DNA of 64,000 nt, from assembly GCA_964016885.1 (NCBI GenBank), contig OZ024741.1, positions 321,222,001 to 321,286,000 of the forward strand, in the 5' to 3' direction. The position numbers were made by a program, and so were the translations under genes. Under the pieces are notes generated by a model, which worked only from the letters and a program-made list of their open reading frames with translations, ran no database searches and had not been told where the DNA came from. The stretch comes from Eledone cirrhosa. Taxonomy: Eukaryota. This document shows, in pieces, positions 3,724 through 42,692 of this stretch. Position 1 is the stretch's first letter, and the number at the start of each line of letters is the position of its first letter.

Positions 3724-3763
3724 CCGAGAACAATTGTTTCACCTTCGCGGATCTTCAGCTCGG
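3724..3763 (-). ncRNA. Minimal type I hammerhead ribozyme motif in PLE 3'UTR
   Basis: Minus strand reads CCGAG-CUGAAGA-UCCGCGAAGGU-GAAAC-AAUU-GUU-CUCGG. Stem I is CCGAG/CUCGG, the core is intact, and stem III is the palindrome ACAAUUGU. The mirror copy at 5096-5139 has a damaged core (CTAGCTAAAGA). Confidence 0.85.
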
Positions 3764-3945
3764 GATGTGTATGGTTATAGGAACAGGAAAGACAACCGTA
3801 CGAACGCGCATGCGCAGAAACTCGATCACTTCACACAGGCAATACTAGACAGCGTGCGGGAGGTGTAAGGGAGATAACTGCGAAAGTCCGGAAAGTTTTT
3901 AGGTTGAAAATAAAATTAAAAAATTAAAAATATAGTTACAAAGAA

Positions 3946-4546
3946 TCAGTCCGGAGCCTTGTAGTTATGCAATAGATGTTCGGTGACGTGTGGACAACGT
4001 GTGAAAAATTCACTTCTCGTATTTAGTCAATCACTATTTCGCAATCTCTTTAGGATAGTTATTCGTTCGTCAATATATAAGCCACACGTCGGATTTCCCC
4101 TTGCGTATGGCTTGGACTTAGTGATGGCTTTCCATTGAATGGAGTAGCCTATACTTGAGTCCTATACGCGAGTTTCGTGGATGAACGTCTGTCCGGGTAT
4201 CTGAAGTTAGACTGGTGGTTCAGGAAACGCTCCTTGAATCCGCCCTCCGCTATGCCCACATAGGATTTGACCTCCTGTGGTTCGTTTGGTCGGTTGGAAG
4301 TGACCACAGCTTCATAGATTACAGCTGGTGTGTTGCATTGTTGTTGAAGGGGGCAAGCTTCAGGCTTACGGCAAGAGCACCCTGGTGGGGTGTTGCTCCT
4401 AGGGCTGCTGGTGATGTGGGCCTTCATGTTTTTAGCGCAGGAGTATCCTAGTTTAATTTTGTGTCGGTTAAAGATGGAGCGGTATTTATTACCTATGGGG
4501 AAGTGTCTATCTAAGAGGGCTAGAAATTGTTTTCCTACATTGGTTT
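3946..4546 (-). pseudogene. PLE ORF C-terminus: Cys linker + GIY-YIG endonuclease (frameshifted)
   Basis: TNVGKQFLALLDRHFP...SIFNRHKIKLGYSC..., CSCRKPEACPLQQQC, AVIYEA...SYVGIAEGGFKERFLNHQSNF. Confidence 0.85.
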
Positions 4547-4913
4547 CAACCGACCAAACGAACCACAGGAGGTCAAATCCTATGTGGGCATGGCGGAGGG
4601 CGGATTCAAGGAGCGTTTCCTGAACCACCAGTCTACCTTCAGATACCCGGACACACGTTCATCCACGAAACTCGCGAGTCACGTATGGTCCCTCAAGGAC
4701 TCAAGTATAGGCTACTTCATTCAATGGAAAGCCATCACTAAGTCCAAGCCATATGCAAGGGGAAATCCGACGTGTGGCTTATGTATTGACGAACGAATAA
4801 CTATCCTAAAGAGATTACGCAATAGTGATTGCCTAAACACGAGGAGTGAATTTTTCACACGTTGTCCACACGTCACCAAACATCTATTGCATAACTACAA
4901 GGCTCCGGACTGA
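4547..4913 (+). pseudogene. PLE GIY-YIG C-terminal half, open frame but 5'-truncated
   Basis: KSYVGMAEGGFKERFLNHQSTF...TKLASHVWSLKD...WKAITKSKPY...CGLCIDER...CLNTRSEFFTRCPH. Confidence 0.85.
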
Positions 4914-5877
4914 TTCTTTGTAATTTTATCTTTAATTTTTTTATTTTATTTTCAACCTAAAAACTTTCCGGATTTTCGCAGTTATCTCCCTTACACCTCT
5001 CGCACGCAGTCTAGTATTGCCTGTGTGAAGTGACCGAGTTTCTGCGCATGCGCGTTCGTACGGTTGTCCTTCCTGTTCCTATAACCATACACATCCCGAG
5101 CTAGCTAAAGATCCGCGAAGGTGAAACAATTGTTCTCGGTATGGTGAACTAACTGTAGAGTAACCACTTCTATATATATAAACACATACGTATATATACA
5201 TACATAATTATATATACTTACATTTATATATCCAGAAATATAAATACATATATATACAGAAATATGAATAAATATATATACATGCATATGTATACATATA
5301 TGCACACACACACACACACACACACACACATATATATATATATATATATATATATATATATATATATATATATATATATATATATATATATATATATATA
5401 TATATATATATATATATATATATATATATATATATACATATATACGTGTGTATCTATGTATCTGCATGTGCGTATATGTATGAGAGAAGGGGAGAGACAT
5501 TTAGCCCTAGGTATGTCCATATAAGTCTATGTGGATTTATCCAGTTTGTCCCTTGTGAGATCCTTAAAAATAATTCCAGACAATGTATTGAATTTCATAT
5601 AATCGACTAAAACTCTTGGTGCCTGTGCCACAGTATGTCCATAGCCTGATATTCGTAAAAGAATATGAATAGCTACTTTAAAATCTCTTGTTGAGATTTG
5701 TGCTACAGAATTTGTACGCCAGTATTTCAAAATGTCAATGTTTCAAGTATACAACAAGCATTATCAATATTTAGTTTGAATTCATTTGTTTGTTTTTGTT
5801 TCCTCGGTTTTTGTGTAACCATCTGTCTTTTTTGTGTGACCCTAGCTAATCTGAAAAGCTAGTGCTGTATTACCTTA

Positions 5878-6406
5878 TCTATATATATATAAAGCTGTGG
5901 TTGTCTGTCTGTCTATCGATTTTTGGCACACATCTCCTCTTAGAATCTCTGACGGAATTGCACCGAAATTGCTATACTTGTACATTGAGCCCTAGCGAAG
6001 ACATCGGAAAAAAAATATTTCAAATTGACCCACCCTATGTGACGAAATCGAATCTAATGTATCGATTTTTGAGCGTAAGTGACGAGTTATTTCCCTTTGT
6101 TCTGTTTACATTGAGCGTCTTACGTTGTTTTTCTCTGCGTTGCAGTGTTTACATTTTCGATCTTTGTTAATAAATAACCAGTGCAGTGTTTATCCCCAGC
6201 ATCCTCTTTTGTTATAACATTCGGGTTATCGTTATGTTTTCTTAACTTCATAAGGCATATTGTTGGTTGAGGGAATATTAATCAAAAACACCACATGCAA
6301 GTCTGCACAGTAGACACTACAGTTTTTAAGCCAAAAAAGAAACTTAACATTGTAACTTTAACACAGCTACTGAGCGACCCCGAGCAACGCCGGGCTTTAC
6401 TGCTAG
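5878..6406 (+). mobile_element. Non-autonomous Helitron
   Basis: 5' A|TCTATATATATATAAAG, subterminal GC hairpin cccgagcaacgccggg (~6379-6394), 3' CTAG|T. It is inserted between A and T with no TSD. Confidence 0.85.
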
Positions 6407-6689
6407 TATCTAATATAAATGTCTATTGTTATATTTTAGGATGGCCAATGGTTGATTAGAAAACCGTCACGAACTATTTGATAAGTTAGAGTAAGTATAT
6501 AGTGATAAAACGATACACAAACACACATTAACGCATACGCCCACATATGCATACACATACATTTACACACACACATATACACACACACACAAATATATAT
6601 ATATATATATTTATTATATATATATATTTATTATTATTATATATATATATATATATATATATATATATATATATATATATATATATATA

Positions 6690-40230: not shown

Positions 40231-40340
40231 CGACGGCAGAGCTCAAGCCGTTTCGACGGCTAGGCTATTTCTGGACTGAAATAGCCGTCGAAACGGCTTG
40301 AGCTCTGCCGTCGGGTTCCTTACCCCACTTCTTTCGTTAT
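40231..40340 (+). repeat. Fold-back unit with hammerhead 3' half
   Basis: 40231-40262 and 40282-40313 are perfect reverse complements. Each reads GAAAC-GGC-ttgagctct-GCC-GTC (stem III + GUC). It sits in (TA)n. Confidence 0.8.
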
Positions 40341-40440
40341 ATATATATATATATATATATATATATATATATATATATATATATATATATAAAATAAAGT
40401 TAAATAAAAGTCAAATGATTAAAATTTAGCTTCGTTTATT

Positions 40441-40495
40441 ACTGCTATATATATTTCAGTGACAGCCATCTTTGGCTGTGACCTCTTCAGGCAGT
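40441..40495 (-). ncRNA. Type I hammerhead ribozyme motif with long stem II
   Basis: Minus strand reads ACUGC-CUGAAGA-GGUCACAGCC-aaagau-GGCUGUCACU-GAAAU-AUAU-AUA-GCAGU. It has a 5-bp stem I, a ~9-bp stem II, a palindromic stem III and an AUA triplet. Confidence 0.82.
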
Positions 40496-41001
40496 TTGAA
40501 TTAGTATGGTATAGACAAGTACATATGTTGTTTAGGTGTATGATATTGTCAATACTCTGATATGCCCAGTTCCTTGTTGGGTTGTTAATTCACTGGGGAA
40601 CTGGAGTCATGGTGTTGGTATACAACCAACATAAACTCAAAATCTATATATATATATATATATACATATACATATATATATAGATAGATATATATACATA
40701 TATATATATATATATATATATATATATATATATATATATATATATATATATATATATATATATATATATATCCATTAGTTAAGCAAAGACAAGACCACAA
40801 ATTTCACAAATTTATAGATATATATATCCGATGAATTGACTGGTTACAACTATGTATTGGTGATCGAATGACGTGAAAACAAGCGGGTAGCGATCTCTAG
40901 ACCTACCAGTTCAGAGAAACAATTGTCAGCAATGAGATTAAAAACCTTTTTTGTATAGCAAACCGTGTCACTCTTCTTTCCTGATTTTTCCTGATCTTTC
41001 C

Positions 41002-41095
41002 TAGCTTACAATTGTTTCATCCAAACCTCGGTTTGGATGAAACAATTGTAAGCTAATAAACCGAGGTTTGGATGAAACAATTGTAAGCTAATAAA
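41002..41095 (+). repeat. Perfect hairpin plus tandem re-copy containing hammerhead 3' half
   Basis: tagcttacaattgtttcatccaaac-ctcg-gtttggatGAAACAATTGTAagcta, followed by aaaccgaggtttggatGAAACAATTGTAagcta. Confidence 0.8.
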
Positions 41096-42692
41096 TGGTT
41101 TGAACATAACTTTGATTCCTGTGAATTCTATATAACTGCTCTGTAGAACAACTGATGTTATTACATTGAGCTATTTATCTTACTGGTAATAAGGTAGTAA
41201 TAAATTACTGTCTTTCACTGTTTAGGGTTTAAAATATATATAACTATAAAAAGTTTTAGTATATACATAACCATAAATAGTATCCTTAATACTATATATA
41301 TATATATATATATTATATACATAAATCTTTCATATATTTATATATATATAATCTTTTCATATATATATATATATATATATATATATATATATATATATAT
41401 ATCATAAATCATGTCTTTAGAATTATTAGATGAAATATATACCGTTTCTTATATATATATATATATATATATGTATATATATATATATATATACATATAT
41501 ATATATATTGGTGTCTACCTGTCTATGGTAGAACCAATAACGTTGTTAGAACTCCATGTAGTCTAGAAGTAATAATTCGAACGAGATCAAGTGATGAGAG
41601 TTCTTGTTTTCATAGTAGACTTTCATCATATAGGATTCCGTTGTACATTCTAAACGAGTTACAGAGTCATATAGTAGTTATGTAAGTTCCTGTTATTAAT
41701 CTCAATATTCCACATCTAGCTCATCGTCTTCTTCAGAAACGATTGTTTCTGGGGAAGACGGTGAGATGGATGTGGAGTAAGGAGACTTATAACTACTGTC
41801 GATTTATCATGATCAATGAACCTTCTGAAACGATCGTAAAATAATGAACTGATTAAGCACTAAACTCCGCCTTTTGTTTTCATTGCTCAACACATACAGA
41901 TACACACACATATATATGTATGTATATATATATATATGTGTGTGTATATATATATATATATATATATATATATATATATATATATATATATATATATATA
42001 TATGTGTGTGTATATATATATACATACATATATCTATATATATATATATACATACATATATATGCATATATATATACATATATATACACATATATATAGA
42101 TACATATATGTATACATATATATATATATACATATATATACATATATATATATATATATATATATATATATATATATATATATATATACATGAGTGCATA
42201 TAGTATGTGTGTCTATAAATATGTTCTAGTTAGTCTTTATTTTTCTCCTGCTCGTATGGGTTTATGTGTTTGTGGCTGTGTGTGTATATATATATATATA
42301 TATATATATATATATATATATATATATATATATATATATATATATCGATGTGTCTGCGATTTGGTGGGTGAAAGCGTGTATCGGATGAAGGCTGGATCTA
42401 TATGATTAAAGAGGTATGTCGTAATGGCTGCTTTCCTCCCTGCATTGAATGGTTTCTCCTACAAAAGATAACAGCTAACTCGATCAATCAAACAACTTTT
42501 AATCGTAACCCCATACACAAATACACTCACATACACATACACACAAATACACATATATATATATATATATATATATACACACATAAACATACGCGCATAC
42601 ATATACAAAAATACACACATATATACACACACACATACGTATACGTACAGACATACACATATACAGAAATGCACACATATATATATATATAT

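Follow-up and report, generated by a model that had tools for sequence, protein, structure and literature searches.

The 64,000-nucleotide (nt) stretch of Eledone cirrhosa contig OZ024741.1 analyzed here (positions 321,222,001 to 321,286,000; "the window") contains a series of short units that carry hammerhead ribozyme motifs and derive from several families of Penelope-like elements (PLEs). Many of the units are mirror images composed of two inverted arms. The host genome is 3.0 Gb and rich in microsatellites. We coined family names for the units according to their location in the window: A (14.6 kb and 20.3 kb), B1 (25.2 kb), B2 (40.3 kb), C (41.0 kb), D (6.8 kb), E (3.7/5.1 kb), F (40.45 kb), G (41.7 kb), and J (17.06 kb). 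All positions of arms and of their shared upstream limit (the "cliff") are given relative to the G of the ribozyme GAAA(C) motif, which is position zero. Downstream, arms end at one of two sites and are called short-tail or long-tail arms accordingly. The units are as follows.

3621..4550, − strand: family E, Neptune-type PLE by our assignment, long-tail arm of an inverted insertion; complete minimal hammerhead at 3724-3763
4544..5172, + strand: family E, short-tail arm; endonuclease C-terminus at 4524-4913, damaged hammerhead at ~5.1 kb
6690..6976, no overall strand: family D unit; short-tail arm 6690-6760(−), inverted snippet, long-tail arm 6773-6976(+) starting from −58
14503..14575, − strand: family A, short-tail arm, +47 to −25
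14572..14708, + strand: family A, long-tail arm, −25 to +111; complete hammerhead at 14569-14625
17057..17100, + strand: family J, decayed hammerhead, non-palindromic here
20287..20351, − strand: family A relative, single short-tail arm that stops near the cliff
25162..25362, no overall strand: family B1 palindrome; the short-tail arm, 25162-25221(−), extends to −17 and the long-tail arm, 25222-25362(+), begins at −18
33770..33812, − strand: decayed hammerhead-like motif, single arm, U3-A8-type core
40214..40337, no overall strand: family B2 palindrome; inverted arm stops at −18
40392..40640, − strand: family F end, non-palindromic; complete hammerhead at 40441-40495, upstream limit approximate
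41002..41293, no overall strand: family C unit; turns within the native stem II of 7 bp, followed by a tandem duplication of 35 bp and the long tail
41692..41890, no overall strand: family G palindrome; apex at ~41742 on the 5′ strand of stem I, GAAAC at 41827, loop II of ~85 nt

Ribozyme-bearing units and their parent elements

A descriptor of type I hammerheads detected three complete motifs in the window, at 3724-3763(−), 14569-14625(+), and 40441-40495(−), with the conserved core, stems I to III, and the palindromic loop III of the minimal type I fold. The loose version of the descriptor yielded three matches, whereas 100 shuffles gave 0.3 on average and never more than 3; the strict version yielded two, versus none in each of 100 shuffles. 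No hammerhead family was present among the Rfam matches listed (150 of 205). The original prediction had called four cores complete. Three of them are; in the fourth, at 20301-20351(−), the core is intact but stem I is only 3 bp long. The placement of the units mostly in (TA)n by the original prediction holds for most of them but not for the 17.06-kb unit, which does carry a decayed hammerhead and whose family relatives have an intact core. The 33.8-kb hammerhead is degenerate, as described, with one relative in the sequence compared. The 3.7-kb and 5.1-kb hammerheads, complete and damaged, respectively, exist, but they do not belong to separate mini-units: they delimit a single inverted insertion of 1.55 kb whose arms overlap at 4544-4550, so that the junction lies within the endonuclease open reading frame (ORF).

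Across 85 family A arms, stem II pairs are kept in 72 to 84, with a variable loop II, and base pair swaps in stem I are compensatory (A-T/G-C, 45/11; C-G/A-T, 51/7). By these pairs, the structure of the family A motif is conserved. Inserted copies extend across the predicted hammerhead cleavage site. In families B and D and in the 33.8-kb motif, U3 and A8 replace C3 and G8, a natural compensatory variant of the hammerhead core; the family C core has C at position 4. Two further families were found in the window. Family H is an additional hammerhead with a long loop II at 40827-40933(+), and its core is intact in relatives. Family I is an abundant ribozyme-like family overlooked in the original prediction [14721-14805(−), 23937-24107(+), and 25998-26058]; among the 57 arms examined, tails are short or long, mini-palindromes occur, and many copies extend past a cliff located near −25.

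Long copies link the units to PLE coding sequence, which bears out their predicted origin from several PLE families. In families E and B, the ribozyme of long copies is preceded by a reverse transcriptase (RT), a linker rich in cysteines, and a GIY-YIG-like domain, and a family A locus (L012) retains pieces of all three. RT, zinc finger–like linker, and GIY-YIG-like motifs were recognized by eye in loci L325, L322, L012, L076, and L274. A Pfam search matched GIY-YIG alone, in one of three pieces (E = 0.011, below the cut-off), and gave no match for two window ORFs. From their motifs, we take these elements to be of the Neptune type, with a C-terminal endonuclease. The clade label also leans on PMC8557442.

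In family A, the long tail runs into an ORF start at +156/+157 in three loci. An ORF start likewise lies past the long tail in one locus of family C and in two of family E, whose relatives carry an ORF of the RT plus GIY-YIG type. The ribozyme and tail together thus constitute the 5′ leader of the element transcript. Ribozyme and tail also sit at the 3′ end of the element, as in a pseudo–long terminal repeat (pLTR). By inspection of the flanks, several families appear to favor (TA)n targets. Long B2 copies often occur as large inverted pairs separated by 0.6 to 3.7 kb, which is how this type of insertion ordinarily looks when long.

The upstream limit of the copies

To examine where arms end, we used search sets for families A, B1, B2, C, D, and E, each consisting of the best 30 of 40 scored genome candidates, the query's own copy included. 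Since the query was the part downstream of GAAA, the apex had no role in the choice of copies. An initial family A search was dropped from the counts because the apex sat in its query, and family G copies were left uncounted because the query for G took in upstream sequence. A separate unbiased sample was composed of six 200-kb blocks at arbitrary positions (1.2 Mb), which contained 76 inverted units: 13 of family A, 59 of B (including two pairs that arose by local duplication), and 4 of D. Read data were raw Illumina short reads of three other runs, plus contigs of a fourth. The upstream context of B2 comes from a few long copies (L274, L286, and some flanks), other long B2 copies being known by position only.

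Arm ends are far from uniform along PLE termini, as the original prediction had supposed. Ends no more than 5 nt from the family mode were found for 35/54 arms in A (mode at −25), 38/51 in B1 (−18), 40/52 in B2 (−18), and 15/41 in D (−62), while 6, 5, 4, and 7 arms, respectively, extended beyond the cliff. The spread is one-sided, with shorter arms inside the cliff and few beyond it. The unselected 1.2 Mb gave the same picture: 41 of 45 A arms do not extend beyond −29, and 114 of 119 B arms do not extend beyond −27. Single-arm copies (L049, L054, L089, L282, and L093) stop at the same cliff. When a long A copy was used to measure read depth in the three runs, depth fell from 1442–1887 at −14 to −22 to 348–451, then 79–89, and finally 19–23 at −41 to −49, an overall drop of about 70- to 100-fold. 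Other families behave differently. Junctions are scattered in C and E, where only 8/42 and 11/38 arms end near the ribozyme; no cliff was found in C within the 382 nt tested, a limit that 12 of 30 copies reach, and none was found for E or F. All 10 family F arms examined extend more than 100 nt upstream.

Several observations point to what the cliff marks. A [TC]ATAAA motif lies 29 to 31 nt before the putative start (+1) in 25 of 33 long A arms and 30 to 32 nt before it in 4 of 6 long D arms. In A subfamilies, this spacing is preserved across differing intervening sequence (C10:166831; loose end in raw reads at 1639). TATA boxes are located ~30 nt upstream of RNA polymerase II start sites. In 34 of 79 arms, the base just before +1 is a non-native G, compared to 52/210 at +2 to +16 (p = 0.002), as would be expected from copying of a cap, which RTs are capable of. 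Given the TATA spacing in A and D and the ORF start past the tail in A, the cliff is likely a transcription start; that is, the one fixed mirror point of each of families A, B, and D likely corresponds to the start of the element RNA. Transcription starts have been placed in the pLTR of Penelope and Chlamys-3 (PMC8557442 and PMC2377424), the promoter described in PMC2377424 being TATA-less, and a TATA box plus initiator were noted in a rotifer pLTR (PMC3846280).

A number of points weigh against this assignment. A search of sequencing runs listed no RNA data set. No TATA box was found in 15 long B arms or in 11 I arms, and no ORF start past the tail was found for B or D in the sequence compared. 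The partner arm could be the source of many of the extra Gs, and none is present where a B arm directly abuts a TA flank; the cap signature is therefore suggestive only. Part of the drop in read depth upstream reflects subfamily divergence there, and an AATT cut site confounds the corresponding step in B2. The cliff of D is broad, and in 21 A palindromes with an AGCT overlap, the end can be read as −25 or −23. Since cliffs were chosen after the data had been seen and the two arms of a unit are not independent, p-values are descriptive only. Last, all four cliffs tested (A, B, D, and I) are YAG, and those of B2 and I, with a T-rich tract before the AG, resemble splice acceptors. The cliff might thus be a 3′ splice site or another fixed processing point of the leader, which would leave room for twofold priming, and in Drosophila virilis Penelope, an intron end does map to the 5′ end of helix I (PMC4209133). 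We consider this decidedly unlikely: the arms retain the AG itself, none of 66 A arms carries upstream exon-like sequence from the ~345 nt tested, and the TATA box at −30 in A and D would be left unexplained.

Unequal arms and the origin of the mirror images

An inverted partner accompanies 67 of the 90 copies of A, B1, and B2 chosen by their 3′ part. Per 30 copies, the numbers are 24 (A), 21 (B1), 22 (B2), 12 (C), 11 (D), and 8 (E). The palindromes are genuine DNA, as originally proposed, since raw Illumina reads of the three other runs contain opposite-strand joints, some close to the apex (−18 to −24) and others connecting tail with leader. The mirror-image units are real and very abundant PLE stubs.

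The two arms of a unit differ in their tails. The short and long tails end at +47 and +111 (A), +44 and +124 (B), +60 and +219 (C), +71 and +135 (D), and +49 and +113 (E), and in the family references, these sites finish in a TA(T) motif. Among the 59 unselected B units, 47 combine a short and a long tail, 12 are unclear or short plus short, and none was classed as long plus long; by eye, a single non-overlapping A unit (C13:166323) has two long tails. Ordinary sense copies, too, have their 3′ end at the short-tail site: 18 of 29 long A copies lack the long tail. Inverted 5′-truncated copies with a tail at one end only are present in both the search sets and the unselected blocks. The mirror image and its center vary from copy to copy. 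Joints mostly consist of 0- to 4-nt overlaps or short inserts, symmetric ones at AGCT, TCATGA, and ACTAGT being common. Units are single or head to head and not tandem head to tail, as a retrozyme without long terminal repeats (non-LTR retrozyme) would be. A palindrome transposing as such, in the manner of a miniature inverted-repeat transposable element (MITE), was considered and rejected, as the shared center and equal terminal repeats of such elements were not found.

At four loci (L125, L041, L003, and L015), joints have short templated duplications in them or close by, of the sort expected from re-priming during end-joining. The unselected blocks contain many tail-only pieces whose start lies between +34 and +45. 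The window contains a tail-only B piece, from +42 to +124, along with a diverged B arm and a D fragment [14219-14301(−), 14847-14891(−), and 25856-25906(−), respectively].

The original prediction held that nascent complementary DNA (cDNA) snaps back on ribozyme stem I, II, or III and self-primes, so that the apex of each palindrome falls on a stem. As a rule, this largely fails. The cliff coincides with the 5′ strand of stem I in A and, by eye, in G, but in B it lies within loop II, and in D it is outside the ribozyme, ~40 nt upstream of stem I; junctions are scattered in C and E. Among individual units, the apex at 14574 does fall on stem I as stated: the two arms share AGCT of its 5′ strand, the putative transcription start. 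The 25.2-kb and 40.3-kb units are palindromes that lack the 5′ half of the ribozyme, yet their apexes at 25222 and 40272 do not lie at stem II. In long family B copies, the missing half, with a U3-A8-type core, is located ~65 nt upstream and stem II is long, so that the apex, 18 nt before GAAA, lies within loop II. The 40.3-kb unit has, in addition, a 5-nt duplication at its center and a deletion in the tail of the sense arm. The 6.8-kb palindrome is likewise real; its inverted snippet extends to the family D cliff, and its center lies ~40 nt 5′ of the ribozyme. The apex at 41742, tentatively assigned to stem III, is instead on the 5′ strand of stem I, for relatives reveal a hammerhead with the ~85-nt loop II. 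The one unit of the window that fits a stem II turn is that at 41028, and such an apex occurs in just 1 of 30 family C copies.

A turn at stem II would retain the native ~30-nt loop, with one arm reaching to about −45 and the other to about −13. This geometry was found in 0 of 59 unselected and 0 of 43 search-set B units. A turn at stem I would leave one core between inverted tails, whereas A palindromes hold two, and single-arm copies share the cliff. Along with the 41.0-kb unit, L024 fits a stem II turn, and one A unit (C3:183498) is joined via stem I complementarity. Joints at ribozyme helices thus look like a minor path, and we regard snap-back on ribozyme stems as a very improbable general explanation.

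The arrangement of arms suggests another origin. We think it probable that the units are short 5′-leader insertions of Neptune-type PLEs, formed from two cDNAs that were primed at both ends of a cut, ran off the RNA, and were end-joined. The endonuclease would cut in (TA)n DNA, and each chromosome end would prime its own cDNA. The two tail sites would be reverse-transcription starts, as in the anole element considered below, one per target end (twin priming, perhaps by a protein dimer). Both cDNAs would run off the capped 5′ end of the RNA and be joined via 0 to 4 nt of microhomology. A palindrome with its apex at the start site would arise when both cDNAs reach the RNA end, and an inversion without overlap when the long-tail cDNA halts at or near the second priming site. 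Copies that extend upstream of the cliff, which dominate in C, E, and F, would have been primed on a read-through transcript, at its downstream pLTR. The ribozyme would be a passenger near the start site, the RNA being copied uncleaved. Each of these elements (a capped start at the cliff, tail sites as RT starts, one priming per target end, the (TA)n cut, and end-joining) is likely. The geometry fits that expected of a twin-priming product, in which two inverted segments, each with a priming site of its own, would be joined by microhomology.

The alternative most in need of weighing is a single cDNA that, having reached the RNA end, snaps back at a small local palindrome and serves as its own template, with the endonuclease trimming the product at the short-tail site and centers being deleted later. 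Self-priming has been inferred from palindromes at inverted junctions (PMC3846280) and the tail ascribed to endonuclease resolution (PMC8557442). The common symmetric joints would suit such a process, both arms of a unit nearly always belong to the same subfamily, and local snap-back insertions exist (L041 and L125). However, a self-copying cDNA cannot add a long tail absent from its template, so units in which the short-tail arm reaches further upstream or in which the arms do not overlap speak against it. The short-tail arm extends at least 3 nt further in 6/24 units of A, 8/21 of B1, 4/22 of B2, 4/11 of C, 4/8 of E, and 0/9 of D. In the 59 unselected B units, arms do not overlap in 10, the short-tail arm extends further in 9, and the long-tail arm in 9; 2 of 13 unselected A units are non-overlapping. 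A single cDNA would require large one-sided deletions for the 10 non-overlapping B units and also for the strongly uneven units L122, L129, L133, and L309, copies that are 99 to 100% identical over the 115 to 117 nt searched. Nor is there an age trend: uneven units are not older than symmetric ones (13 + 22 versus 19 units, p = 0.35), although with 54 units the power of this comparison is low, which limits the support it gives to two primings. Later deletion of the center could mimic unevenness, but uneven units are also present in the youngest families. The use of the short-tail site by ordinary sense copies and the lack of units classed as long plus long palindromes among 72 A and B units are also difficult to reconcile with self-copying, which we consider unlikely. 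One unit, L080 (~1420-1625, +), joins an A long-tail arm head to head with a B1 arm, with one base between them; it favors two cDNAs but is a single case. The idea that arms of one unit differ at subfamily markers was considered and set aside, as the variants were query-selected and the B2 marker base, present in only ~2% of reads, looks like a later mutation.

It is hardly conceivable that the palindromes were amplified as units from MITE-like masters or are fold-back sequencing artifacts. Some joints do recur (the AGCT overlap in A and one −15/−17 joint in 4 of 22 B2 units), but near-identical copies differ in their joint, arms carry unequal fixed tails, scattered mutations distinguish the arms of one unit, and opposite-strand joints are found both in the raw short reads of the three runs and in the contigs of the fourth run.

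The window contains other repeats. Two palindromes without hammerhead motifs, at 2905-3184 (99%, 136-nt arms) and 911-1134 (72%), have few relatives in the sequence compared. An uninterrupted 1207-codon frame at 44593-48216(−) resembles, by eye, a long interspersed nuclear element (LINE) with endonuclease and RT, with decayed relatives at 59.9-63.3 kb. A repeat resembling a short interspersed nuclear element is found at 8176-8898, as a 159-bp tandem array of 4.5 copies, and at ~25 other places.

Relation to known systems and implications

The elements and their ribozymes are of an already known kind. In twin priming by LINE-1, both target ends prime cDNA, which is joined via microhomology, and a 5′-end inversion results. 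The second priming site of LINE-1 is variable and the segments do not overlap, whereas here sites are fixed and arms usually overlap to a common 5′ end. In LTR retroelements, reverse transcription starts near the RNA 5′ end and runs off it, which produces minus-strand strong-stop DNA. That synthesis is primed by transfer RNA, unlike the priming by target DNA proposed here from genomic copies. Twin priming by LINE-1 is named in 10.1101/2024.12.14.628481.

The closest biochemical parallel is Anolis Poseidon, studied in vitro (PMC11167929). Two internal RT starts, near the pLTR-ORF junction, bracket the tail; both strands of an AT-rich target are cut and extended; cleavage of the template is unnecessary; and a dimer is predicted. 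The Poseidon ORF begins inside the ribozyme, in contrast to ~157 nt downstream in family A, and the text consulted does not explain inverted copies or run-off at the RNA 5′ end. Endonuclease-bearing PLEs (PMC3846280 and PMC8557442) share with the units described here head-to-head insertion, a tail on one arm, (TA)n targets, and a pLTR with ribozyme, promoter motifs, and an ORF-proximal leader. They differ in that most A and B insertions are 200-bp leader stubs with one fixed 5′ end and in that tails are 60 to 160 nt here and 30 to 40 nt there; those papers propose self-priming or endonuclease resolution rather than two primings. Minimal hammerheads of PLEs (PMC4209133) and non-LTR retrozymes (10.64898/2026.07.22.740005) resemble these motifs in being of type I, with a short or palindromic stem III and thousands of dispersed copies, but retrozymes are arranged in head-to-tail tandems, whereas the stubs are head to head, with half of the ribozyme missing in B.

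Earlier work has described pLTRs that are inverted and tailed on one side, targeting of (TA)n, and hammerheads in pLTRs, and self-priming has been proposed for palindromes at inverted junctions (PMC3846280). In the literature searched, which covers few subscription papers, we found no paper that locates the PLE mirror point where the RNA begins or that explains the inverted copy by twofold priming. The origin of the inverted repeats and one-sided tail of PLEs is named as an open question in PMC8557442 and is not settled in the text consulted of PMC11167929.

The stubs turn this question into direct predictions: the mirror point should be a capped 5′ end, and one palindrome can hold two templates. 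We see an even chance that the inverted pLTR with a tail at one end is, in PLEs generally, the footprint of obligatory twin priming by an RT pair, that on the order of 10^5 insertions in this genome are strong-stop–like leader copies, and that their mirror point, sometimes with a base copied from the cap, maps the transcription start to the nucleotide. If true, the stubs would provide a DNA-only route to mapping PLE promoters. By rough scaling from 76 inverted units per 1.2 Mb, in blocks that are very uneven, hairpin-forming units would number on the order of 10^5 genome-wide, and repeat annotation could mistake these stubs for MITEs or microRNA precursors.

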